Shown one piece after another: positions 2,032-51,933 of a DNA stretch of 64,000 bases. Made by a program: the position numbers and the translations under genes. The notes beneath the pieces are model-generated. The model had not been told where the DNA came from, did no database searches, and worked only from the letters and a program-made list of their open reading frames with translations. The DNA is from Candidatus Pacearchaeota archaeon. GTDB taxonomy: Archaea; Nanobdellota; Nanobdellia; Pacearchaeales; GW2011-AR1. Numbering within the stretch: position 1 is the first letter of the stretch; each line of letters begins with the position of its first letter. The stretch lies in NCBI GenBank assembly GCA_018304105.1, contig JAGVWX010000019.1:1411-65410 (forward strand), read 5' to 3'.

Positions 2032-2157
2032 ATGTGCGATTCTGTTAAAAATCTTTTTGTGGTTGGTTTAGGAATCCCCCAATTCGAATTTGACCTAACG
2101 GTCAAAAACCCACCTTCCGCCCAGATAGTTTCGACATTTAGTTAATGAGCTACTGTT

Positions 2158-2367
2158 ACGCGCCGCAATTGGACGCCTGTTCAAGAGACAAGGTCAACGA
2201 CATTCGTCGTTGAGGCACTGACGAAGTCATTCGTTTCACTCATGAGGCAGCCAGCTGGCGTCTTAATCATTTGGCTCATTTGAACTTGGTCAACTCCTTT
2301 CAGTCGTTGAGGCACTGACGAAGTCATTCGTTTCACTCATGAGGCAGCCAGTTCGCCAAGCGATGCG
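2158..2367. repeat. copy of the dispersed hairpin element (core aattggacgcc) interrupted by two 49-bp direct repeats
   Basis: The hairpin arms gacgcc (2172-2177) and ggcgtc (2257-2262) are separated by 79 nt here, versus 13-14 nt in other copies. The 49-mer gtcgttgaggcactgacgaagtcattcgtttcactcatgaggcagccag occurs at 2206-2254 and 2303-2351. Flanks are homologous to 51340-51500. Confidence 0.8.
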
Positions 2368-2545
2368 TTAATTAGTTAATTGTCAGTCGAATTATTCGTT
2401 GCAAACGATTCTAATTTTGGTAGTTTCAGAATCTCGCTCGAATTTAACTTTTTTAACCGGTATATAATAACTACATACTGGTAGCTAAAAAACCTATATC
2501 TTGGAAAGTAACAATCCTTATAAATAAATTTGTTATCAAAACATA

Positions 2546-3292
2546 ATGACAAAAAACTCACAGTTTGTTTATATTTTCTTAGTCTTAACAGTTCTCTCCT
2601 TAAATTTAGCAAACGCGCAGGCATTAGTCGCTGGAAAAGTTTACAATGCAGACTTTAGTGATATTCTTTCTGGCGTAAATGTTAAAGTTGTTTGCAATAA
2701 CGCAGAACCTTCGAATACAATCACTCTTGGAGACGGGACTTATGCTGTTCGTTTTGAAGAAACAGAATGCAATGAAAGCGATAGCGTGAGTGTCGTTGCA
2801 AGCAAATCCGGTTTCCAGGATAAATCAGGCTCTGGGACTATAAGTCGATGCGAGGGTACAGATTGCGAAGAGCCATACGTTACAATTATTAATCTGGGGA
2901 TGAAAACTCAGACGTCCAACGGAGGAAATACTGGCGGTGGAAGCAGTGGAAGACACTATTTATGCGGTAACGGAAAATGTGATAGCGGAGAGAGTGTAAA
3001 TACATGTCCTAAAGACTGCAAGACAATCGAACTATTAACGCAAACGACCAACACAACAGCTAATGCAGATGATGAAGAAACAACAGGAACGCAAGCAACA
3101 AGAACTGAAATTCCTGAAGAAACTTTGTCAGAAACAACTAACGCAAGCTCTTTCCCAGGAATAACCGGTGCAGTAATCGGAACTCTAGGAGCTGCCGGAA
3201 CATTTCTCATCATAGTATTCCTAATTGGAATAATTGCTGCTGCCATTACAGTAAGAATTATTAGAAAGAGAAACAGATTTCAGGAATTTTAA
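2546..3292 (+). CDS. secreted, C-terminally anchored surface protein
   Basis: Signal peptide (LVLTVLSLNLANA). Carboxypeptidase-regulatory-like stretch (VAGKVYNADFSDILSGVNVKVV...GDGTYAV). CGNGKCDSGESVNTCPKDC motif, Thr-rich linker, then ITGAVIGT followed by a TM helix and RKRNR. Confidence 0.6.
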   Translation: MTKNSQFVYIFLVLTVLSLNLANAQALVAGKVYNADFSDILSGVNVKVVCNNAEPSNTITLGDGTYAVRFEETECNESDSVSVVASKSGFQDKSGSGTISRCEGTDCEEPYVTIINLGMKTQTSNGGNTGGGSSGRHYLCGNGKCDSGESVNTCPKDCKTIELLTQTTNTTANADDEETTGTQATRTEIPEETLSETTNASSFPGITGAVIGTLGAAGTFLIIVFLIGIIAAAITVRIIRKRNRFQEF

Positions 3293-3299
3293 ATAAATT

Positions 3300-4670
3300 C
3301 TAAGTCGCGCGCCGCAACCAAAACAATCCAATAAACTCGCTTAGAAATATTCTGTTTAGATTTTTGGCTGGGACGACTTCTCTGACTTCTTTAATTCTAT
3401 GAACAAACAGCGTGACGGAAAGAAAACGCAACAGCGCGCTTAGGATGAAAATCCAGACAATCCCGGAAATTCCAAGCGCAACTCCGCTAAATGACGAGAG
3501 TGCCCCGCCGAGGGTTGCGCCGATAAACGCCCCGAGGGAGTTTAGGATTCCAGTGTAAGCAGAAATAAGCGCGAGCCTTTCTCGCGTGATTGCATGAAAC
3601 ATGAAAGTCCACGTTGCCAAATTAAATCCTGCCCAGACAATACCTGAAAAAGATTCAACAAGAATAAGATAAATGACGACGAAAGAGGTATGTAAACTTG
3701 CCATAAAAATTGTCAGCACCCACAACGCCGGAATCACCCATATCAAATAACCGGAGAATTTGAATATGGCGACATTGCCGTACCGCTCAATCAACCTTCC
3801 CCAGAACTGTATAGTTAAAAGTGTCGTGATAATCGGAGCAACCAATATCATTGTGAAGGCAAAATAATTCAAGCCAAGGTTTTTTAATTCATAAACTACA
3901 AAGAACGGCGATGCAACTGCCGTCGAGAAAGAAACCAGCGCCCAAAAAATCGCGAAGCGCCCGAAATTATTCGATGACATCTTTCGCAGAAATTGCCAGA
4001 AACTGAAATAATAGCCCTCGCTATGCTGTAACTTGGGTTCGTATTTTTTCGTGAACATATAAGCAGAGAAACTTCTTCCTAGAAACGCGACAAAAAGAAT
4101 AATCGCAAATCCTGCAAATACATTGAACGGCGTGAGAAAATACAAAACTAATCCGGCAATTCCTGTGCTCAGCAGGCCGACAATTCCGCAAACCTTGCTT
4201 CTTCTCCCAAAATAAGAATCTGCGTTTTTTATGACGATGTCTTTCATCCATGAGCTCCAGGCAGGACCGACAAACGAACCGGCGACGCTTAGGATAGTGT
4301 ATAAAACGATGACTAAAACCGAGCTTATAACGGCGGACAGGCCGAAAAAGAAATATGCTATGCCGACGGCAATGAGGGGAAGCCACAAGATTGCTTGGAT
4401 AGTGACAAACCATAAAAGAATTTTTTTTCTGGAATGTTTTTCGATGGCTCTTGAACCAAATAATTGTGAGATTGTCCCAAGAAGCTGCGGCAGAGCGCTC
4501 AACAAACCAATGTGAGTATTCGTCGCGCCAAGCGCGAGAGCATACGGAGTAATATATTTTGAGCCAAAGCCGTCCATCACGGAAGCGGCACTTCCTTCAA
4601 CGATGCTTATTTCTGCTGCTTTCTCGCGAAGTTTCTCGTCTTTTAATTTTTTCTCTTCCATGACTGGCAT
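3300..4670 (-). CDS. MFS-type transporter
   Basis: 456-aa polytopic membrane protein with about 12 hydrophobic helices. Clear paralog of the partial gene at 63306-64000 (VESFSGIVWAGFNLATW vs LEIFSGFAWAGFNHATA). Confidence 0.65.
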   Translation of the reverse strand: MPVMEEKKLKDEKLREKAAEISIVEGSAASVMDGFGSKYITPYALALGATNTHIGLLSALPQLLGTISQLFGSRAIEKHSRKKILLWFVTIQAILWLPLIAVGIAYFFFGLSAVISSVLVIVLYTILSVAGSFVGPAWSSWMKDIVIKNADSYFGRRSKVCGIVGLLSTGIAGLVLYFLTPFNVFAGFAIILFVAFLGRSFSAYMFTKKYEPKLQHSEGYYFSFWQFLRKMSSNNFGRFAIFWALVSFSTAVASPFFVVYELKNLGLNYFAFTMILVAPIITTLLTIQFWGRLIERYGNVAIFKFSGYLIWVIPALWVLTIFMASLHTSFVVIYLILVESFSGIVWAGFNLATWTFMFHAITRERLALISAYTGILNSLGAFIGATLGGALSSFSGVALGISGIVWIFILSALLRFLSVTLFVHRIKEVREVVPAKNLNRIFLSEFIGLFWLRRAT

Positions 4671-4685
4671 TAATACATAAGTTTT

Positions 4686-4749
4686 GTGCGCTGCAATTGG
4701 ACGCCCTTTTTTGAGGCTGTCGTCTTAATTATTTAGCTCAGCAGCGCAC
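4686..4749. repeat. structured dispersed element (9-bp outer inverted repeat around the aattggacgcc core)
   Basis: gtgcgctgc (4686-4694) and gcagcgcac (4741-4749) are perfect reverse complements. They enclose caattggacgcc...cgtcttaattatttagctca, homologous to 51388-51464. Confidence 0.75.
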
Positions 4750-4847
4750 CAACTTAATGATTTTCCTTTATTTAGAAATGGGAGTTTAAAAATTGTGACT
4801 AATTACAGCGTGATAATCTTTATTAATCTAGAAAGAGTAATGGGAGA

Positions 4848-8940: not shown

Positions 8941-9055
8941 GTTTGTTGAAAATCTTTTCTATAGGGTTTAAGATTCCCACAGGGATTTCACTTTCAGTGA
9001 AAAACCCACCCTTCCTCGCCCACCCCTTTCGCCCCAATCAAAATAGTAAACCTGT
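8941..9055. repeat. dispersed C-rich box module
   Basis: gtttgttgaaaatct...gattcccaca...cccacccttcctcgcccacccctttcgccccaatcaaaatagtaaa. Homologous modules at 16560-16640, 2041-2135, 20741-20790 and 51281-51330. The listed ORF 8910..9143 across it is considered spurious. Confidence 0.7.
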
Positions 9056-16278: not shown

Positions 16279-16527
16279 AATTGAAATAATACATTCTTAT
16301 ATATAAATGTATTTCACTTTAAAGAAGTAGTAAAAGTTTAAAAGTTGTTCTTTCTTATTGCCGATTTTTTGTTATTTTTGGGTAATGATTTTTGATGAGT
16401 TTGACTATACGAATTCTCGGTTAAAATAGCTTCAATTGTTATTGCTCACAAGAGACTAGGTCACTCGCTTCGCTCATGAGGCAGCCAGTTCGCTAATTAC
16501 TTTTGACTATTTTGTTGTGGGTAAGAT

Positions 16528-16664
16528 TATGCTCTGTCCGGAATAGGTTTTCTGATTGATTTTATGATTCCCACATATTTCGACTATCGTCGAGTCCCAC
16601 CCTCACCACCCCTCACCTCCGCCCCAAGATGCTAGTAAAATCAATAAACTCCGGACAGAGCATA
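16528..16664. repeat. MITE-like element with 15-bp perfect terminal inverted repeats
   Basis: tatgctctgtccgga (16528-16542) and tccggacagagcata (16650-16664). aagatta is present on both outer sides. The interior carries the C-rich box cccaccctcaccacccctcacctccgcccc. Confidence 0.7.
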
Positions 16665-16740
16665 AGATTAGATAATAATATATGATATTATGGTTTGGGC
16701 TTTATTAATTCTAGGGGCTGTTATTTATTGAGAGAGATAA

Positions 16741-20578: not shown

Positions 20579-20902
20579 TTCTTAATCTGTTTTAGGGCTT
20601 TGCTGAAAATCTCTTAGAATTGTTTTACTCGCAACCACGCTTGTTATTATATCTGCAATATCCTCTCGCGTAACATGCTCACTCGCAGCCACGCTCGAAA
20701 TTTGCTAATTACTTGCACTCGCGTAACATGCTCGCCTTTATCACGTCTTCAACCCCGCCCCCAATCAATATAGTGAATCAATAATTTGACTTTTTTAGCA
20801 AAGATTGTAGCTACATAACAGTAAAAGTTATTTGGAAGTACATTAACGCCCATTAACAGAAAGTTTATATAGTGCGAACTTTTGGGTTTCTGAGTAGAGA
20901 AA

Positions 20903-33129: not shown

Positions 33130-33827
33130 ACAATAAAATTACTACGGCAATCGACGGAAGACTAAAGAAATCAATCGTCTTATTGGGAGATTTGACTGGC
33201 AAGAAAATATTAGACGTTGGGTGTAAGGCAGCGTGGCTGGAAAACTATCTCAACGACCACAAGACAAAACTTAAGGAAATGCATTCGTTTGACGTAGAGA
33301 ATTATGATTTTCCTAAACTTGGAAAGAAGTTTCATTTTGCTATTGATTCAGTATTGGATATGAAGAGATATTTCGGAAAAGATTTTGATGTGGCTACATT
33401 CTTTGAAGTGATAGAACATATACCGAAGAATACAGAGTTACAAGCTTTGACGAACATAAGGAAAACTTTGAAGGTTGGTGGGAAGCTTTATTTGTCGACT
33501 CCAAACAAAAGTCTTTTTTCAAATGCTCTTGATCCAGCTTGGTGGCTTATAGGCCATAGACATTACTCCGAGAAAGAACTGAGGAAGATGTTGGAAAAAG
33601 TTGGTTTTAAGATAGTTAAGTCAGAAGTCCGAGGAGGATTTACGGAGTTGATCGCTATGGACACTTACTATTTATTCAAGAATGTGTTTAGAACGAAAAG
33701 GTTTGGTTCTAACTTGTTTAAGGATAAAAGAAATAGTGATTATTTAGATAAGAACAAGAAAGGATTTGCTACTCTGTTTATCGTTGCAGAAAAGACTAAG
33801 GAAAAGAAAAATAAAACTCTCCCCTAA
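33126..33827 (+). CDS. class I SAM-dependent methyltransferase
   Basis: ILDVGCKAAW (motif I-like), FDVATFFEVIEHIP, GGKLYLSTPN. The last four codons and the stop are contributed by repeat element R1. Confidence 0.65.
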   Translation: MNNKITTAIDGRLKKSIVLLGDLTGKKILDVGCKAAWLENYLNDHKTKLKEMHSFDVENYDFPKLGKKFHFAIDSVLDMKRYFGKDFDVATFFEVIEHIPKNTELQALTNIRKTLKVGGKLYLSTPNKSLFSNALDPAWWLIGHRHYSEKELRKMLEKVGFKIVKSEVRGGFTELIAMDTYYLFKNVFRTKRFGSNLFKDKRNSDYLDKNKKGFATLFIVAEKTKEKKNKTLP

Positions 33828-33910
33828 ACCCTTAATCTCAACAGCAGTTCTCATCTCAAATGGGACGGACGCCAATTTAGTTCTGGTTAGCTCTGGTTAG
33901 TTCTGCTGGC
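33814..33910. repeat. cassette-boundary element, copy R1
   Basis: aaactctcccctaaacccttaatctcaacagcagttctcatctcaaatgggacggacgccaatttagttctggttagctctggttagttctgctggc. Near-identical copies at 36018, 36889 and 37692. Confidence 0.9.
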
Positions 33911-34060
33911 TGTGTTGTGATTTGCTTGGTTCTGCTTGGTTCTGCTTGGTTCTGCTTGGTTCTGCTTGTCTTGCTAATTGCCTTACTTGCTTTGTCGTGA
34001 TTTGCTGACGATGTGAACGACATGTGAATGACTTGTGAGTGAGGAGAAGAACGAAGTGAA
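33881..34060. repeat. phased 10/11-bp degenerate tandem array upstream of a promoter
   Basis: ttctggttag ctctggttag ttctgctggc ... tttgcttggt (tctgcttggt x3) tctgcttgtc ... then gatgtgaacga catgtgaatga cttgtgagtga ... agtgaacga. The top strand is almost free of A over 33881-33970. Confidence 0.85.
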
Positions 34061-34076
34061 CGAAAAACATAAATAG
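34061..34076 (+). promoter_or_regulatory. BRE/TATA promoter variant (cgaaaaacataaatag)
   Basis: Identical 16-mer at 38958. 20 nt to the ATG at 34097. Confidence 0.55.
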
Positions 34077-34096
34077 CCGAGATTGCTGAATGAGAG

Positions 34097-34438
34097 ATGG
34101 AAAAACGGAAGTTTGTCTTCATGTATGATGATTTCTCAGATAGGCTGCTAATATCATGCAAAGATAAAAATGAGACCATTTCTGGGAGTGCGAGGGTTCT
34201 GAATCTTGTTCTTACATTTACAACCAATAATAAAGTTGTTGGCATAGAGCTAAAAAATGCCTCTAAGTATCTGGAATCACTAAGAATAAACCCTAAGATA
34301 TTGAATAATCTAAGCAACGCAGAGATTGTTTTTCAGCAGCAAAGAGATGGGTATCTGATTTATTTTATTCTTTATGCAGGAGAAGAAGTGGAAAGAGTCC
34401 CCTATAACGTAATATCTAGAGAACCTATCCTGAATTAA
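34097..34438 (+). CDS. DUF2283-like small protein
   Basis: 113 aa. FVFMYDDFSDRLLISCKD...VVGIELKNASKYL. Paralog of 39811..40158. Confidence 0.65.
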   Translation: MEKRKFVFMYDDFSDRLLISCKDKNETISGSARVLNLVLTFTTNNKVVGIELKNASKYLESLRINPKILNNLSNAEIVFQQQRDGYLIYFILYAGEEVERVPYNVISREPILN

Positions 34439-34770
34439 CTTTTCTTGAGTCTTTTATCCAGACTTCTTTTATACTCTACTGCATGGATGATTAAAACTCC
34501 CTTGTCTTTAGGGCAGGTGGCAATTGAGAAATAGGTGCCGTTGCTTAAATTGTAAAATAATTCATAGCCTATGTCTCCATATTTTAATGTGTCTTTTTCT
34601 ATTTCAGTCACTTTATCAAATTGGGGGAATACTTCAAGCACTTTTTTATGTTCAATTCCCTTCTCAGCAATGCTTAATCTGTAATAGCTTGTAAAAATTA
34701 ATTTCTTTCCTTTGATTTTCTCTGTGATTATCTTCTGGATTTCCTCTTTTTCTGAGATGATTTCAGTCAT
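34435..34770 (-). CDS. convergent partner of the DUF2283-like gene (DUF4258-like, putative toxin)
   Basis: 111 aa. YYRLSIAEKGIEHKKVLEV loosely resembles the HA-x-x-R-x-x-ERGI region of DUF4258. TTAA stop-stop overlap with 34097..34438. Own TATA (tttataac) ~24 nt upstream. Confidence 0.5.
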   Translation of the reverse strand: MTEIISEKEEIQKIITEKIKGKKLIFTSYYRLSIAEKGIEHKKVLEVFPQFDKVTEIEKDTLKYGDIGYELFYNLSNGTYFSIATCPKDKGVLIIHAVEYKRSLDKRLKKS

Positions 34771-34854
34771 CTCTTTTTTGACTTATTCAGAGTTATAAAT
34801 TTTCCCTATAAAATTTTTATAGCCCATAATTATTCTAGGCAAACTTAGAAAATA

Positions 34855-35045
34855 AAACTCTCACTTAAATCCATCATCTCTTCTTCCCAATAGGACTCAC
34901 CATGCTTCGAGGCTGTGAGTCTTGATTATTGCCCGCCCCTAAATCCATCATCTCCCCTATACTTCAATAGGACGCCTGTTTTATTTTGCTGACGAATTGC
35001 TGACGAATTGCTGACGATGTGAGGGGTTTGTGAATGAGAGGGGAA
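34855..35045. repeat. cassette-boundary element, diverged copy R6, with covarying hairpin and 3 x 11-bp repeats
   Basis: aaactctcacttaaatccatcatctc... Hairpin gactcac (34894-34900) / gtgagtc (34915-34921) followed by ttgattatt. ttgctgacgaa x3 at 34986-35018. Confidence 0.75.
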
Positions 35046-35062
35046 CGAAAGGGTTAAATAAT
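35046..35062 (+). promoter_or_regulatory. consensus BRE/TATA promoter (cgaaagggttaaataat)
   Basis: Identical 17-mer at 24010 and 39775. 20 nt to the ATG at 35083. Confidence 0.6.
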
Positions 35063-35082
35063 AGAACAACAATAACAACAAC

Positions 35083-35208
35083 ATGACAAAGAAGAAATTA
35101 ACGGGGAAGAATGAGAGAAAGGTTGAAGAGTTGAAGGAAATTATTCTTTCTATTAGAAACGATCCTGTGGCTATGAAACAAGTTAAAAAGTTAGCTGTTG
35201 CCTGTTAA
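35083..35208 (+). CDS. 41-aa small ORF downstream of the consensus promoter (not in the supplied ORF track)
   Basis: MTKKKLTGKNERKVEELKEIILSIRNDPVAMKQVKKLAVAC. Sits at the exact promoter-ATG spacing seen for seven other genes. Converges on, and overlaps by 18 nt, the PIN gene. Confidence 0.4.
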   Translation: MTKKKLTGKNERKVEELKEIILSIRNDPVAMKQVKKLAVAC

Positions 35209-35664
35209 GAAACTTCTTTTTAGATCCTTATATGTGTAAAAGGTTGGAGTTCTTATCTTTTTTCTTAGGTTAATTATCTTATAAGCATTTATTGCCCTTG
35301 GATGTTTTAATGTTTTTTCATCGTCAGAGAAGATTAAATCAAAGTTATACAAACTGGCGCAGGCAACAATTTTGAAGTCATTTCCGATGTTTGCCCAGTT
35401 CTTCACGCCATTGTTTGCTTTGTATTCTGAAAAATACTGCTTTGCCAGTTCTTTAATTTGTTTGTTCTCTTGAATCATTGTCCCCTTAACTAACTTATCA
35501 TATACTCTTAGGATACTTGGAGCTTTCCTTAGCTCATCTCTGATTAGCCTGAAATTATGAATTACGAATCGATTATCTGGAGCAATTTTTTCAACGAGGT
35601 TTATACCTTCTGCATCTTCAATTATTTTCCCATAGATATTTGTGTCTAATAATACATTCGCCAT
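35191..35664 (-). CDS. vapC: PIN domain protein (VapC-like toxin)
   Basis: 157 aa. N-terminal VLLDTNIY with the first PIN aspartate, and a later FDLIFSDDEK acidic cluster. Own TATA atatatttaaac ~28 nt upstream. Confidence 0.65.
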   Translation of the reverse strand: MANVLLDTNIYGKIIEDAEGINLVEKIAPDNRFVIHNFRLIRDELRKAPSILRVYDKLVKGTMIQENKQIKELAKQYFSEYKANNGVKNWANIGNDFKIVACASLYNFDLIFSDDEKTLKHPRAINAYKIINLRKKIRTPTFYTYKDLKRSFLTGNS

Positions 35665-35743
35665 CTTTGAACATAGAAACAGTCTGATTGTTTAAATATA
35701 TTTACATTGGTAAACCATTTAATCACTACAGAAGCGTCGAGAA

Positions 35744-35929
35744 CTACCTCTTTTGTCTCCATTTCATTATTTCGTCTTCGCCTTTCCACGAACCGCTTTT
35801 TTTACTGAGCGCATTTTGGGCGCTTACAGCCCTTGTCAGATTATTTTTCTTTCTCAATCGCCCGGCTACCAAAATCTCTATTTTATTTTTTAAGAGGCGC
35901 AATTCTTTGCCATTTATTTCCTGTTCCAT
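35744..35929 (-). CDS. VapB-like antitoxin candidate
   Basis: 61-aa basic protein immediately upstream of the PIN gene on the same strand. The SGSWKGEDEI motif is typical of small archaeal antitoxins. Confidence 0.5.
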   Translation of the reverse strand: MEQEINGKELRLLKNKIEILVAGRLRKKNNLTRAVSAQNALSKKSGSWKGEDEIMKWRQKR

Positions 35930-36017
35930 TGCTTGCTAACAGCATCATCGCATATAAATTTTTGGTTATCTTAGTTTTGCTTGGATATTACGATGTTGAA
36001 GTTGTTGCCCCTTAAGG

Positions 36018-36116
36018 AAACTCTCCCCTAAACCCTTAATCTCAACAGCAGTTCTCATCTCAAATGGGACGGACGCCAATTTAGTTCTGGTTAGCTCTGG
36101 TTAGTTCTGCTGGCTG
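36018..36116. repeat. cassette-boundary element, copy R2
   Basis: Near-identical to 33814-33910. Confidence 0.9.
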
Positions 36117-36167
36117 CGTTTGGCTTGTGAACGAAACAATTAAAAGCATTTGAAAGCAAACTATTGT

Positions 36168-36383
36168 ATGGCTGCTAGTGTATCTCCTTCGGAAATGAAT
36201 TATGAGTTTTATGTAGAAAGTGATATGAGCAAATACATCGGAGAATGGGTTGCGATTTTTGAGGGGAAAGTAATTGCTCACGGAAAAAATATAAAATTGG
36301 TTGCTGAAGAAGCAACAGCCTTAGCGAAAGGAAGAAAAGTCTTGTTTGCTCGCGTGCCAGATAAAGCAGCGATGATATTTTAG
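36168..36383 (+). CDS. DUF5678-like small protein
   Basis: 71 aa from the ATG at 36168 (TATA caattaaaag ~25 nt upstream). YIGEWVAIFEGKVIAHGKNIKLVAEEA...ARVP matches my recollection of DUF5678. Confidence 0.6.
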   Translation: MAASVSPSEMNYEFYVESDMSKYIGEWVAIFEGKVIAHGKNIKLVAEEATALAKGRKVLFARVPDKAAMIF

Positions 36384-36384
36384 A

Positions 36385-36813
36385 ATGACTATCACGTTTA
36401 AGTATAAGAGAATAAGACGACCTGACAATTCAGAGATTAAGACGCCTTCTATTTTAGTAACTTTTGGTGGAGCCGGAGCAAAATACGACTTTATGGTCCT
36501 TGTTGATTCTGGTGCAGATGTTTCGGTTATTCCGAAATCCATAGCGGAATTACTTGGACTGAACTTGGCGGGAGAGGAAGAAGAGGCGTCTGGAATAGGC
36601 GGTGTTGTCCCTGCGGTAGAAAGCAGTGTGCAGATAGAAATACATAAAGGGCATGAACATTATTCTTTTGTCCTTCCTGTTAAAGTTATCCTTGACGACA
36701 GCGATTTTCCAATTCTTCTGGGAAGGGAAGGATTTTTTGATAAATTTGTTGTAACATTCAATCAGTCAGAAGAGAAATTAATTTTAAAGAGAGTTCAAGA
36801 GGGCAGTTATTAA
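36385..36813 (+). CDS. retropepsin-like (clan AA) aspartic protease
   Basis: 142 aa. FMVLVDSGADVSVIP contains the D-S/T-G-A catalytic motif. ILLGREGFF is a flap/dimer-type C-terminal motif. Starts 1 nt after the DUF5678-like stop. Confidence 0.75.
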   Translation: MTITFKYKRIRRPDNSEIKTPSILVTFGGAGAKYDFMVLVDSGADVSVIPKSIAELLGLNLAGEEEEASGIGGVVPAVESSVQIEIHKGHEHYSFVLPVKVILDDSDFPILLGREGFFDKFVVTFNQSEEKLILKRVQEGSY

Positions 36814-36888
36814 GCCGATTATCTGTTGAAATTCTTTGGCAGTTTTCTCTTGAGTTTATTCTTCTTTGAGGTCTCGGAACAGAAAATG

Positions 36889-37079
36889 AAACTCTCCCCT
36901 AAACCCTTAATCTCAACAGCAGTTCTCATCTCAAATGGGACGGACGCCAATTTAGCTCTGGTTAGTTTTGCTGGTCTTGCTCGCTTTGCTTGTTAATTGC
37001 CTTACTTGCTTTGTCGTGCTTGTTTTGCTGGCTGTGTTGTGATTTGCTGACGATGTGAGGGGTTTGTGAACGGCTATGG
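36889..37079. repeat. cassette-boundary element, copy R3, plus phased array
   Basis: Core near-identical to R1, followed by ctctggttagttttgctggtcttgctcgctttgcttg...gatttgctgacgatgtgaggggtttgtgaacgg. Confidence 0.9.
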
Positions 37080-37096
37080 GAAAGAGTTTAAATAAT
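37080..37096 (+). promoter_or_regulatory. BRE/TATA promoter variant (gaaagagtttaaataat)
   Basis: 19 nt to the ATG at 37116. Confidence 0.55.
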
Positions 37097-37115
37097 ATAC
37101 ACGACTGGATAAAAC

Positions 37116-37334
37116 ATGGAGAGAATTGTAATAAACAATGAAGTCTTGGCAGGGAAGCCCATAGTGAAGGGAACAAGAATATCTGTAGAATTTATATTGG
37201 AAATGCTGTCTTCAGGAATGAGTATCGAGAGGATTTTGGAAGAATACCCTCATCTGAAGAGGGAAGATATATTGGCCGCTTTGGAATATGCAGCAAGGAT
37301 TTTTAAAAGAGAAGAATTTTACAGACTTCAATAA
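37116..37334 (+). CDS. DUF433-like antitoxin candidate
   Basis: 72 aa. LAGKPIVKGTRISVEFILEMLSSGMSIERILEEYPHLKREDILAALEYA is the characteristic DUF433 pattern. Confidence 0.75.
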   Translation: MERIVINNEVLAGKPIVKGTRISVEFILEMLSSGMSIERILEEYPHLKREDILAALEYAARIFKREEFYRLQ

Positions 37335-37335
37335 A

Positions 37336-37692
37336 ATGAAATTCCTTACTGATGAAAATGTGGCAGTTTCCGTCGTTGGATTCTTAAGGCAAGAAGGATT
37401 TGATGTGAAAGACGTAAAGGAAGAGTTGTTGCATGGCTCTCCAGATAGAGAAATTTTCGAGCTTGCAAAGAAAGAAAATAGAGTTGTTCTAACGCATGAC
37501 AAAGATTTCTTGGAGATTGTAAAGAATTACACTTCTGATTTTGAGGGGATTATTTTAATAAAGTGCAAAAAACAAAGTCCAGAAAACGTTATCGCAACTT
37601 TAAGCAAACTCATAGACTCTGAGGCAATTAAAAAAATTAAAAATAGTCTGTTTATTTTGAATGAAGAAGAATTAGTAATAATTAGAAAATGA
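37336..37692 (+). CDS. DUF5615-like (PIN-like/Mut7-C type) toxin candidate
   Basis: 118 aa from the ATG at 37336 (MKFLTDENV...LTHDKDF). Typical partner of DUF433. The listed upstream start overlaps the DUF433 gene and is rejected. Confidence 0.7.
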   Translation: MKFLTDENVAVSVVGFLRQEGFDVKDVKEELLHGSPDREIFELAKKENRVVLTHDKDFLEIVKNYTSDFEGIILIKCKKQSPENVIATLSKLIDSEAIKKIKNSLFILNEEELVIIRK

Positions 37693-37790
37693 AACTCTCC
37701 CCTAAACAAATCATCTCAACAGCAGTTCTTATCTCAAATGGGACGGACGCCAATTTAGTTCTGGTTAGTTCTGGTTAGTTCTGCTGGCTG
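37692..37790. repeat. cassette-boundary element, copy R4
   Basis: aaactctcccctaaacaaatcatctcaacagcagttcttatctcaaatgggacggacgccaatttagttctggttagttctggttagttctgctggctg. Begins at the stop codon of the preceding gene. Confidence 0.9.
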
Positions 37791-37927
37791 CGTTTGGATG
37801 GTACGTTTACAGACGCTGATTAACGCTTTGTTGAAAATCTGTCTTTTCTTGGCTGTTTGCTACTCACCAGCCACATTTAAAATCCTTGCCACCAAAATCT
37901 TTTAAACTTCAATAAACTGAACAAATT

Positions 37928-38839
37928 ATGGAAAAAGAGAAAGATGAAGTTGAAGACAGGAAAGAAGGTGACAGGGAAAATGACGAGGAAGACGGCACCC
38001 ATATTGCCATTTTTAATGGGAAACGCATAAGAAAGCGAATGGTGAATGGTGAATGGTTCTTTTCTATCGTAGACATTGTCGGAGTCTTAACTGAAAGTTC
38101 TCGCCCTAGAAAATATTGGTCTGATTTAAAATCTAAGTTAATAGACGAAGGTTCAGAGTTGTCCGCAAAAATCGGACAACTGAAATTTAAGTCTAGCGAT
38201 GAAAAAGATTATCTAACAGATTGTGCCAATACAGAAACTATTTTCAGAATAATTCAATCAATTCCTTCTAAAAAAGCAGAACCTTTCAAAAGATGGCTGG
38301 CAAGAGTTGGTTATGAAAGAATTCAAGAAATAGAGAATCCCGAGTTGGCACAAGAAAGAATGAAAAAATTGTATGAACTAAAAGGATATTCTAAAGACTG
38401 GATTGAGAAAAGATTGAGGGGAATTGCAGTTAGGCAGGAGCTTACAGATGAATGGAAAAATAGGGGGGTTAAAAAAGAAATAGAATTTGCTATTTTGACC
38501 AATGAAATAAGCAAGGCAACATTTGACAAGACTGTTGAAGAATACAGGAAATTCAAAAAGCTAAAACGCGAAAACCTGAGAGACCATATGGACGACTTGG
38601 AACTTATTTTTACTATGCTGGGGGAAGCAGCAACAACCAGAATTACTAAAACAAAAGATGTTCAAGGTTTTCCGGAAAATATAATCGCCGCAAAACAAGG
38701 CGGGGAAGTCGCAGGTAATGCACGAAGAGAATTAGAAGAAAAGACGGGAGAGAGTGTTTTATTAGAAGATAATTACTTAGACATTCCGGAAAAGCTAAAG
38801 AAAAAGAGGAAAAAGCTAATAGAAAACTTAAATGGTTGA
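37928..38839 (+). CDS. Bro-N domain protein, DNA-damage-inducible protein D (DinD)-like
   Basis: 303 aa. GEWFFSIVDIVGVLTES..PRKYWSDLKSKL, PSKKAEPFKRWLARVGYERIQE, GYSKDWIEKRL, NLRDHM. This pattern matches Bro-N/DinD-like proteins. Confidence 0.7.
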   Translation: MEKEKDEVEDRKEGDRENDEEDGTHIAIFNGKRIRKRMVNGEWFFSIVDIVGVLTESSRPRKYWSDLKSKLIDEGSELSAKIGQLKFKSSDEKDYLTDCANTETIFRIIQSIPSKKAEPFKRWLARVGYERIQEIENPELAQERMKKLYELKGYSKDWIEKRLRGIAVRQELTDEWKNRGVKKEIEFAILTNEISKATFDKTVEEYRKFKKLKRENLRDHMDDLELIFTMLGEAATTRITKTKDVQGFPENIIAAKQGGEVAGNARRELEEKTGESVLLEDNYLDIPEKLKKKRKKLIENLNG

Positions 38840-38957
38840 AACTGGCTTTAGTAATCAACAAAGCCGGATTTGCTGAAATGGGATGCATTTGCGACGCTGG
38901 AACTGCAACACTAGAACTTGCGATATAACGATGTGAATGACTTATGAACGAAGGGAA

Positions 38958-38973
38958 CGAAAAACATAAATAG
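38958..38973 (+). promoter_or_regulatory. BRE/TATA promoter variant (cgaaaaacataaatag)
   Basis: Identical to 34061-34076. 20 nt to the ATG at 38994. Preceded by gatgtgaatgacttatgaacgaaggg repeats. Confidence 0.55.
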
Positions 38974-38993
38974 TCTAAATTGCTGAGTAAAAG

Positions 38994-39251
38994 ATGGAAA
39001 AGAAAATTGAATTGGATATTGTAATTTATCCAGAGGGCAAGGGAAAAGATAAAGTTTACAGCATAAGCTCTGTTCAGGTACCTAATGTTGTAACGCAAGG
39101 AGATACAATCGAAGAGGCAATAAGCAGGTTAAGAGAAGCTTTAGAATTATACTTTGAGTCTGTTCCCTATGAAAAAGATAATTTGATAAAAATAACGGAA
39201 GATGAACAAGAGGGCTGTAATAACCCGATGATTAGCAGGATCTTTCTTTAA
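38994..39251 (+). CDS. hicB: HicB-like antitoxin
   Basis: 85 aa. VVTQGDTIEEAISRLREALELYFE. The C-terminus NPMISRIFL is paralogous to 25920..26183. Confidence 0.7.
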   Translation: MEKKIELDIVIYPEGKGKDKVYSISSVQVPNVVTQGDTIEEAISRLREALELYFESVPYEKDNLIKITEDEQEGCNNPMISRIFL

Positions 39252-39496
39252 TATCTTAGTAATTCATTTAACTCTTTTAAAATTTCTTCGTTTATTCCAG
39301 CTTCCCTGCAATTGCGGATTAAATTTTGTCTAACTATATTTGATGGTTGTTTTACATTGACTAAAATGATTGGTCGTTTCAAAGGAGGATTTCGATTGAG
39401 CTTAATATGATCGCCCCTCATGTGTTCAACATAGAATCCCTGTTTCTCCAAAATAGAAATCACTTTACTTATTATCGGTTTGAAATTATACTTCAT
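39248..39496 (-). CDS. hicA: HicA-like toxin, convergent with hicB
   Basis: 82 aa from the ATG at 39496 (TATA agtttataat ~22 nt upstream). VISILEKQGFYVEHMRGDHIKL resembles the HicA pattern. TTAA stop-stop overlap at 39248-39251. Confidence 0.65.
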   Translation of the reverse strand: MKYNFKPIISKVISILEKQGFYVEHMRGDHIKLNRNPPLKRPIILVNVKQPSNIVRQNLIRNCREAGINEEILKELNELLRY

Positions 39497-39559
39497 CTTT
39501 TTATTACTCAGAGGACGATTATAAACTTTTTCTATAATTTTTTGTAGTTGCAACCCTCG

Positions 39560-39706
39560 TATTTTTTATTCCCGCATTAAATCGTCAATCATCTCAGCAC
39601 TCGTCCTCATCTCCTAAGCTCTTCACTTCAACAGCAGTTATTATCCCAAATTGGACGCCAATTTAATTCTGGTTAGCTCTGGTTAGTTCTGCTTGGCTAT
39701 TACGGA
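39560..39706. repeat. cassette-boundary element, diverged copy R5
   Basis: ...cttcaacagcagttattatcccaaattggacgccaatttaattctggttagctctggttagttctgcttggc. Contains the perfect palindrome aaattgg-acg-ccaattt. Confidence 0.8.
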
Positions 39707-39774
39707 TAGATACAATCATCGAGGGATTTTGCTCATTTCATTTGCGTGTGAGAAAACGAGGAGAACGGCGAGGG

Positions 39775-39791
39775 CGAAAGGGTTAAATAAT
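39775..39791 (+). promoter_or_regulatory. consensus BRE/TATA promoter (cgaaagggttaaataat)
   Basis: Identical 17-mer at 24010 and 35046. 20 nt to the ATG at 39811. Confidence 0.6.
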
Positions 39792-39810
39792 CTTCATCAT
39801 CAATATAATC

Positions 39811-51153: not shown

Positions 51154-51387
51154 CTTTAGTCTTAGAAAAGTGGATTTAAATTAGTTTTGATTGTTCATAT
51201 ATGTTGAAAGTCTTTTTATGAATTGTTTGCTACTCGCGATCACACTCGCGAATTAATTGATATACTGCTCGTGCAATGCGCTCGCCCACCCTCCCTGCTC
51301 CCGACCTGGCTCGTAAATAATTTTTAGAATACTCTCGCTAAGTCGCTCGCCCAGACAGTTTCGACTTGAAATTAATAAATCATTGTC

Positions 51388-51464
51388 GCGCGCCGCAATT
51401 GGACGCCCGTTAGTGAAGCTGGCGTCTTGATTATTTGGCTCATTTCGTTCGCCTTGCGGCGCGC
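51388..51464. repeat. 77-nt structured dispersed element (11-bp outer stem, inner hairpin)
   Basis: gcgcgccgcaa (51388-51398) and ttgcggcgcgc (51454-51464) are perfect complements. Inner hairpin gacgcc (51402-51407) / ggcgtc (51421-51426), then ttgattatttggctca. Confidence 0.8.
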
Positions 51465-51933
51465 TAAATTTAAGTCGAATTATTTATCGCAAACAATTCT
51501 AATTTTTTGTAGGTTTAGGATTCCCTCCCCGATTTGACTTTTCAATGGAGTTTGAAAGTTCGCAAAATATTTAAAGGCAAATAGCCGAGGATAATTGTTT
51601 TAAACGAACTCGGTATACTGAGATATACTACTAAAGAAGGGCGTGTTAACACTGTTCCCATTGAGAAGTTACAACAAACCGAAAAGTTTAAATACCTTTT
51701 ATGACTCTATTTACTATCACCTCTTTTTGCCCGGGAGAGGACGTTTAGTTCATCTATTTTAGCTTGAATTAAACCTCCTCTTCAAGGGTTTGAATTTTGT
51801 TATAAATCTCCAACAAATCATATTTCTTAAGAAGAAAATGATGGCATCCGGTCTAGAATCCGGCACTACATCTTTTTTATTTTTATTCTTTTATAATTAA
51901 TTTATCTAGAAAATACTCTTTTTGCCCGGAAGA

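Follow-up and report, generated by a model that had tools for sequence, protein, structure and literature searches.

A structured intergenic repeat of narrow distribution in a Candidatus Pacearchaeota genome

Short hairpins of the REP/BIME type are recognised as structures and vary in their stems by compensatory change; they are mobilised by RAYT (HUH/Y1) transposases, both REP and RAYT are bacterial, and hairpin elements derived from IS200/IS605 are termed 'PATE'. Archaeal examples of MITEs are found in Sulfolobus. Prokaryotic MITEs, including archaeal ones, have been surveyed (PMC11602168), and archaeal integrons and attC clusters without integrase exist in Nanoarchaeota, where they are often associated with toxin-antitoxin cassettes (PMC9668308). 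Here we describe a hairpin repeat from a stretch of 64,000 nucleotides (the window) of an uncultured DPANN archaeon, Candidatus Pacearchaeota (assembly GCA_018304105.1, contig JAGVWX010000019.1, positions 1,411 to 65,410). The same DNA is present in the ENA assemblies ERZ27254749 (148-kb contig) and ANAN16-1, and its proteins recur in some 50 sample blocks. Neighbouring genes in the window include those for Spt4, Rpb7/RpoE, S24e and S27e, and the closest homologues of its ScpA and MFS proteins carry the source labels Nanoarchaeota or Candidatus Pacearchaeota.

The family consists of three full copies (A, B and D) plus fragments, all of them intergenic (Table 1), the full copies measuring 80-170 nt, plus inserts in A. 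The repeat resembles MITEs in being small, non-coding, intergenic, present in several copies and foldable via inverted repeats, and also in that the segment carrying copy D is absent from the homologous site in relatives. Unlike in MITEs, its inverted repeats are internal and not terminal, its arms differ between copies by paired changes, a target duplication is doubtful, and a search of the window's ORFs revealed neither a transposase nor a parent insertion sequence. Going by their description, REP/BIME elements share with it a short imperfect palindrome whose structure is conserved via compensatory changes (three outer and two inner pairs), the combination with other short motifs into mosaics, and an orientation bias compatible with a single-strand (lagging-template) mechanism, but our repeat lacks a GTAG-type 5' tetranucleotide, its copies do not form inverted pairs and neither a Y1 transposase nor TnpB was found in the window. 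With attC it has in common a site of 60-80 nt that folds as a single strand, its stems stacked in two levels and its terminal loop variable, as well as the proximity to accessory and toxin-antitoxin cassettes. It differs from attC in that the R''/R' consensus is missing (the outer arms read GCGCGCCGCAA / TTGCGGCGCGC in D and GTGCGCTGC / GCAGCGCAC in B, without RYYYAAC / GTTRRRY), in its asymmetric internal loop, in the lack of an array of sites and of IntI in the window, and in that the cassette boundaries of the window are unstructured direct repeats. Paralogous small-RNA families are matched by the conserved single-stranded segments between co-varying stems and by the downstream T runs, but not by the missing shared promoter, the missing Rfam family, the lack of conservation in sister genomes and the tolerance of large insertions. 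The hairpin repeat is an element of a kind already known, of which it is a new member with a very narrow distribution.

That a core motif recurs in this DNA had been noticed in a sequence-only reading, and it does so far beyond expectation. AWTWGGACKC matches the window exactly at six positions (2167, 4695, 34889, 34966, 39649 and 51397), all on the + strand, where shuffled sequences predict 0.97 matches and none of 100 shuffles attains six. The heptamer GGACGCC occurs ten times against 2.2 expected, and nine of these occurrences lie inside hairpin-repeat elements on the + strand. Four of the six core sites, namely those in A, B, D and the truncated copy at 34889, belong to structured copies as had been proposed; the remaining two (34966 and 39649) turned out to be core fragments and not structured copies. 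The claim of a dispersed repeat with a two-level stem is borne out by the homology of A, B and D, which are about 80% identical: B and D share 81% identity across 72 nt (E 4e-15), A and D 80% across 64 nt (E 3e-12) plus two further blocks. The homology between A and D reaches well past the stems and overshoots the 9-11-bp inverted repeats by ~40 nt leftward (5') and ~55 nt rightward (3'). ORFs within the copies comprise 20-36 amino acids only, and none is common to the copies. A micro-ORF in a frame shared by D and B (TTG...AIGRP...) was ruled out, as A has no start codon for it and the stems co-vary. Every full copy, fragment and boundary core is oriented on the + strand, even beside - strand genes, which is the situation of D, and a gene start is found within 16-235 nt of every copy. 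GC skew is positive over the entire window, so that the uniform orientation fits a replication-linked single-strand mechanism, with only three independent loci behind this argument.

Table 1. Positions of the hairpin repeat and associated features in the window
Feature	Positions	Strand	Basis
Copy A, long form	2118..2430	+	Homology, covariance model
Copy B, short form	4669..4759	+	Homology, fold, covariance model
Module M, third copy (CAAGAGAC.AGGTCA...CTCATGAGGCAGCCAGTTCGC)	16446..16496	+	Similarity to inserts in A
Truncated copy	34889..34931	+	Inner hairpin; weak covariance model match, 9.2 bits
Core fragment AATAGGACGCCTGTTT	34966..34981	+	15/16 positions match CAATTGGACGCCTGTT of copy A
AAATTGGACGCCAATTT in last cassette boundary	39647..39663	+	11-mer AATTGGACGCC common to A, B and D
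Noncoding segment containing D, ~340-350 nt	51195..51558		Alignment/reading of L030, L031, L033, L052, L053
Copy D, long form	51348..51521	+	Homology with A over whole span
Core of D	51388..51464	+	Sequence, folds, covariance model score 109.6 bits

Copy D has a 5' extension (CGCCCAGACAGTTTCGAC...), a two-level hairpin core and a 3' tail with a terminal T6 run. Its outer stem is perfect over 11/11 bp (51388-51398 / 51454-51464), and its inner hairpin is formed by GGACGCC (51401-51407), a loop of 13 nt and GGCGTC (51421-51426, the arm reaching 51427 in one delimitation), next to which lies the conserved unpaired segment CTTGATTATTTGGCTCA (51426-51442). In B, nine of nine outer pairs form between 4686-4694 and 4741-4749, a stem that extends with mismatches to 4676-4759, and the inner hairpin (4699-4705 / 4719-4724) contains a single C/T mismatch at 4720. 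Read directly from the sequence, all stem coordinates given before proved correct, including the perfect outer repeats of B and D (9/9 and 11/11); what had been overlooked is that A possesses an outer stem too (2158-2166 / 2360-2368), with 8/9 pairs, one of them G-T. The inner hairpin of A (2171-2177 / 2257-2262) has a loop of 79 nt. The outer arms lie 46-55 bp apart, ~190 bp in A, and the internal loop is strongly asymmetric, with 2 nt on one side versus 13-26 nt on the other (2 versus 26 in D). Palindromes of the family comprise CAATTG, AAATTGG-ACG-CCAATTT and a GC-rich inverted repeat.

As RNA, the core of D folds with -38.1 kcal/mol (z -3.55) and B with z -3.24; DNA folds of D and B reach z of about -3.1, and the complementary strand of both folds equally well. 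Pairing is retained through two-sided changes, as had been claimed. When A, B and D are aligned, three of the nine shared outer pairs are changed on both sides (one from G-C to A-T, two from C-G to T-A), one further pair has become G-T and one is broken. The inner stem is identical in A and D, and in the truncated copy at 34.9 kb two of its pairs are changed on both sides with pairing kept. In a shuffle control, 20/500 shuffles attain the observed covariation, three sequences affording little resolution. G-T (G-U) pairs occur on the + strand only: all four copies have one at the base of their inner stem, and A has another at 2162/2364. Conservation in unpaired segments matches that of the stems, and the best-conserved stretches of the copies are unpaired.

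Resident copies are not protected, as is evident from inserts in A, from a loss of 97 nt in the same copy and from a SNP in a stem of B. The sequence-only reading had reported an insertion of 79 nt in the loop of A; the loop size is correct, and the insertion itself resolves into two copies of a separate 62-69-nt unit, module M, which interrupt A at 2192-2259 and 2288-2356 and of which a third copy is found elsewhere in the window. In L047, a different assembly of this organism, A is 97 nt shorter, and the missing part includes the inner hairpin's 3' arm together with the conserved tail. This difference (window 2192-2356; L047 12037-12107) could stem from recombination between two 69-nt direct repeats or from assembly collapse. 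Two strains compared over 6.6 kb differ at seven positions, made up of four SNPs and one 3-nt deletion, and one of the four SNPs is position 4720, which breaks or restores the inner stem of B: strain L049 has a G there, restoring the pair, and the window has T. Copy A is situated behind a Fic gene and beside a type I restriction-modification island, and B adjoins the start codon of a divergent MFS gene (4670), beginning two bases within the codon. A and B are direct repeats that bracket a block of two genes (2546-4670), one encoding a protein of 248 aa and the other the MFS protein; the latter is at most 56% identical to any relative, and the 248-aa gene has a different neighbourhood in its closest relative. 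No strain without the A-B block was found, and among strains L001, L002 and L047-L049 no presence/absence polymorphism of copies was detected.

The site of copy D can be compared with five relatives (L030, L031, L033, L052 and L053), all of which lack the D-containing segment at the homologous position. Upstream of ScpA, these five genomes have a nearly invariant noncoding block plus a TATA-containing sequence, followed by the ScpA promoter, and the D segment lies between the conserved TATA-containing block and that promoter. The spacing between these landmarks is ~12 nt in L030, ~32 nt in L033 and ~62 nt in L031, and an ORF of 87 aa occupies the site in L052 and L053. Since spacing and content vary in this way, D sits in a lineage-specific segment at a variable site. 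A derivation of the segment from the 87-aa ORF of L052 was ruled out, as the two share no similarity. The segment is composite, with a copy of the recurrent motif TGTTGAAAGTCTTTT on the left; the second part, module U, is homologous to a stretch located elsewhere in L052 that is missing from its close relative L053, and the right part consists of the hairpin repeat, a T run and GGTTTAGGATTCCC. Its flanks GTTGAAAGT (51204-51212) and GTTTGAAAGT (51549-51558) are a possible, yet doubtful, target duplication; the left one is part of the recurrent motif and the empty sites of the relatives are highly diverged. The ends of the 340-nt segment are not inverted repeats.

The nearly invariant noncoding block itself, of ~145 nt, occupies 51640-51790 (- strand) of the window, 9735-9880 in L030, 7183-7330 in L031, 9722-9870 in L033, 3238-3375 in L052 and 723-860 in L053. 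It reads AAACCCTTGAAGAGGAGG...CCGGGCAAAAAGAGGTGATA...AAAAGGTATTTAAAC...ATGGGAACAGTG and is near-invariant across these six genomes, in which ScpA differs by 13-19%. A long hairpin is predicted for it and a strong TATA box lies inside; the sequence beyond the block shows no conservation as protein and keeps a hairpin with some covariation. A search of the block against Rfam in E-value mode yielded no match. The block is a candidate ncRNA or regulatory region.

Fragments of the repeat occur in an array of toxin-antitoxin-like cassettes (33806-39800; DUF2283, PIN, DUF5678, DUF433+PIN_10, Bro-N and HicB/HicA), which is inserted between methyltransferase and LPG-synthase genes that are neighbours in L033. 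Different toxin-antitoxin genes are located at the same position in L031. In the truncated copy, GGACTCAC (34893-34900) pairs across a 14-nt loop with GTGAGTC (34915-34921). Compared with D, this hairpin has two compensatory pairs and is one pair longer; GAGGCTG is its loop motif and CTTGATTATTG its tail, and no outer stem is present. Region 34841-34990 is chimeric: the left half of a cassette-boundary element runs directly into the truncated copy, with the repeat's inner hairpin and tail, and a second partial unit comes next; the core fragment at 34966-34981 lacks a 3' arm. The cassette boundaries are direct repeats of ~115 nt, 77-100% identical, four of which contain AAATGGGACGGACGCC (33858, 36062, 36933 and 37736), with AAATTGGACGCC in its place in the fifth (39647), where the core forms a perfect 7-bp palindrome with a 3-nt spacer. 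Sequences to the left and right of the shared core AAT.GGAC combine differently between sites. Folding of the boundaries (33806-33925 and 39596-39710) is no better than that of shuffled sequences (z +0.2 to +1.3), and an attC-like nature of the boundaries was therefore ruled out. The link between repeat and boundaries that had been drawn from the letters is accordingly weaker than claimed: it amounts to a shared 11-mer and one chimeric copy, with boundaries that are themselves unfolded. The short core common to both may be a recombination or binding site. As a separate observation, a tandem 10-nt repeat (GGTTCTGCTT, ~5 units) follows the first boundary (33916-33966), and related TG-rich repeats, CTGGTTAG and GCTGACGA, follow the others.

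A covariance model, R1, recovers A, B and D at 80-110 bits and detects nothing else in the window apart from the weak match at the truncated copy. No further copy lies in the flanking DNA, of which ~9.8 kb on the left side and ~9 kb on the right side were covered. Neither R1 with filters off nor blastn nor a descriptor of hairpin plus tail found anything in L030, L031, L033 and L050-L053, that is, in ~101 kb from seven Nanoarchaeota/Pacearchaeota genomes with ScpA 69-87% identical. The 19-mer GTCTTRATYATTTRGCTCA gave 24 matches in GTDB species genomes, from unrelated bacteria and contexts and none with a hairpin; the pattern GCAATTGGACGCC N8-38 GTCTTRAT gave 13 chance matches in JGI metagenomes, two exact-pattern scans of IMG/VR only three, and blastn against phages and plasmids none. 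One IMG/VR contig (3300037124_000040; L027 407-445) carries AAATTGGACGCC-gtatgcgtatat-GGCGTCTTGATC, in which the 5' core and the beginning of the tail agree with the repeat and the hairpin is complete, and this match in a GC-rich viral contig is probably a chance product of the search pattern. The sequence-only reading had counted a restriction of the copies to this stretch against its own proposal, and the outcome comes close to it, in that flanks, seven relatives, GTDB, JGI, IMG/VR, phages and plasmids provided no copy. On present evidence, only a single population harbours the family.

Genes in the window are mostly leaderless, with BRE/TATA elements placed very regularly from -31 to -22 relative to the ATG. 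This promoter (CGAAA..TTTAAATA-like), found ahead of the majority of first genes, ends ~22 nt before the ATG, for example at 39768-39791, 35042-35061 and 34057-34076, which implies leaderless mRNAs. A promoter matrix built from 27 leaderless promoters of the window revealed no site common to the copies on either strand and scored 2.4 at most at the shared TTAATRA box, and a shared promoter inside the element was consequently ruled out. D alone shows a moderate TATA-like site (score 6.4) with a predicted start at ~51351, where the homology between A and D begins. The MFS gene starting at 4670 is without a canonical TATA, and copy B fills its upstream region. The lack of a shared promoter, together with the start of B within the MFS codon, argues against self-contained RNA genes and is compatible with read-through transcripts. 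T runs follow the copies at 20-45 nt (T6 at 51503-51508, T4 at 2412-2415 and T4 at 4761-4764). At the gathering threshold, Rfam recognises two tRNAs only in the whole window, and ARAGORN finds tRNA-His and tRNA-Ser and nothing else; in E-value mode the best match for D and B is a weak CRISPR-DR46 (E=2). No match to a known RNA family, which would have told against the element proposed from sequence, was thus obtained. Features of C/D-box or H/ACA guide RNAs are missing from D, which has no CUGA and in which UAAAUUU, not ACA, follows the stem, and no complementarity of the seed to other sites in the window was found. A retron, a DGR or a CRISPR repeat was ruled out, with no reverse transcriptase, array or regular spacing present and CRISPR-DR46 at E=2.

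The sequence-only reading had left the choice between a small RNA, a folded single-stranded signal and a MITE-like parasite, and the evidence leans towards a repeat that is mobile or recombining at the DNA level, RNA being compatible. We tentatively favour a lineage-specific, non-coding, non-autonomous structured intergenic repeat of MITE/REP-like character that would spread or recombine as DNA. Dispersed intergenic copies of ~80% identity count for this view, as do the absence of the D segment from five relatives at a variable site, the position of the copies next to accessory or variable DNA (the Fic/restriction-modification island, the MFS and 248-aa genes and the toxin-antitoxin array), the unprotected state of resident copies, the lack of a shared promoter and a density of three full copies per ~83 kb of genome (window plus flanks), which is high for paralogous RNA genes in such a genome. 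The five paired stem changes speak for dependence on the fold, and the rearrangement of modules F (see below) and U in this genome and in L052 and L053 for a mobile or mosaic nature. On the other side, no transposase, integrase, HUH protein, Y1, TnpB or RAYT was found among the ~60 window ORFs scanned, the repeated unit extends beyond its inverted repeats, any target duplication is doubtful, copies do not vary in presence among L001, L002 and L047-L049, and no other genome or metagenome searched contains one. The mobile reading is further weakened by the fact that conservation is highest in unpaired segments, as an RNA seed or a site bound by protein would equally show, and by the small number of independent loci (three) behind the orientation argument.

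Mobility, a single-stranded step and an acting enzyme are what we infer beyond these observations. Spread of the repeat would depend on a folded single strand, whose outer GC-rich stem, inner GGACGCC/GGCGTC hairpin and conserved unpaired GCAATTGG and CTTRATYATTTRGCTCA would be recognised by an enzyme whose gene lies elsewhere in the genome; HUH/Y1 transposases and tyrosine recombinases would be candidates. Copying would be restricted to repeats with an intact fold, and this may be why the stems differ by paired changes; once arrived, a resident copy would decay freely, which may account for A with its insertions, for the SNP of B and for the copy truncated at 34.9 kb. The hairpin repeat would then represent one module within a wider intergenic mosaic (F, U and M) that is shuffled between loci.

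Among the alternatives, the main rival takes the copies for paralogous genes of small non-coding RNAs on the + strand, in which stems would stabilise the molecule and the unpaired CUUGAUUAUUUGGCUCA would be a seed or protein-binding site. Such genes would explain compensatory stem changes, G-T (G-U) pairs confined to the + strand, unpaired segments as the most conserved parts, a T run 20-45 nt after each copy and a TATA-like site (6.4) in D that predicts a start at ~51351, right at the onset of the homology with A. We nevertheless consider them unlikely, given that no promoter stands at a common position, in a genome whose protein genes have a regular TATA at -31 to -22, that B begins two bases within the MFS start codon, that Rfam has no match, that D has neither a CUGA D box nor ACA after the stem, that no target complementarity exists within the window and that relatives do not conserve the element, not even at the same locus. 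Moreover, A tolerates insertions of 79 nt and 68 nt and lacks the 3' arm and conserved tail in one assembly, and the complementary strand folds equally well. If the copies were instead functionless, decaying duplications, the perfection of their inverted repeats would be owed to templated (quasi-palindrome) replication mutation and not to selection; very few copies in one population, visible decay in A, B and the 34.9-kb copy, and stems in D and B as perfect as templated correction would make them are in keeping with this idea, which is, however, quite improbable given that the presence of copies at four or more loci, separated by 2.5 to 47 kb, requires some means of copying and that unpaired segments match the stems in conservation.

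A structure-specific recombination site, attC-like without being attC, might mark junctions of accessory cassettes and offer its folded strand to a tyrosine recombinase. A and B as direct repeats around the 2546-4670 block, with genes that are poorly conserved or elsewhere in relatives, a terminal loop varying from 13 to 79 nt with the stems kept, the truncated copy and core fragments at junctions of toxin-antitoxin cassettes, and the differing combinations of flanks around the core AAT.GGAC all point in this direction, and Nanoarchaeota do have integrons and integrase-less attC clusters, often with toxin-antitoxin cassettes (PMC9668308). The stems, however, contain no attC R-box consensus (RYYYAAC / GTTRRRY), the internal loop is asymmetric (2 nt versus 13-26 nt), no integrase is encoded within the window, regular cassette boundaries are unfolded and the A-B block is present in every strain compared, which makes such a site rather doubtful as an explanation. 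It is very improbable that the palindromes act as double-stranded operators or insulators binding a dimeric regulator near promoters: all copies do lie 16-235 nt from a gene start, a perfect 7-bp palindrome spaced by 3 nt makes up the core at 39647, and B is placed between divergent genes, of which the MFS gene lacks a canonical TATA, but outer arms 46-55 bp apart (~190 bp in A) are too distant for a simple operator, a protein that reads sequence needs no paired changes of the arms, and the neighbouring genes are unrelated in function.

One might imagine that DPANN genomes possess a hitherto undescribed system of structure-specific single-stranded DNA sites, distinct from attC and from bacterial REP, at which a trans-acting recombinase or HUH enzyme moves accessory gene blocks and small modules from one intergenic site to another; we think this improbable as it stands. 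In such a system the enzyme would recognise the two-level hairpin and would act on the lagging-strand template, hence the uniform orientation of the copies. Should the repeat be mobile or recombinogenic, it would be among the first non-autonomous repeats with a structure to be reported from Nanoarchaeota/Pacearchaeota, whose genomes are very small, and could help to explain the shuffling of toxin-antitoxin, defence and transporter cassettes there. At present, its main value lies in model R1 as a seed for searching complete genomes of the lineage.

The window contains other intergenic modules as well. Module F, in which TGTTGAAAATCTTTT and then GGTTTARGAWTCCC precede a short hairpin and AAAACCCACC, is found repeatedly between genes, at 2043-2125 and 8944-9040, with variants at 20601, 36824, 37829, 51202, 53290 and 54926, and is also found in L052 (2900-2970, -) and L053 (500-570, -). 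Eight of its nine good matches are on the + strand, independent of gene orientation, and its small hairpin differs between sites by paired changes (GACC/GGTC, CACT/AGTG and CGACT/AGTCG). The longest inverted repeat of the window (16522-16670), with 21-nt arms (TAAGATTATGCTCTGTCCGGA) that are 90% complementary, encloses 107 nt with F-like and C-rich (CCCACCCTC...CCGCCCCAAGATG) motifs and has a module M copy beside it; possibly this repeat is a further element bounded by a hairpin.
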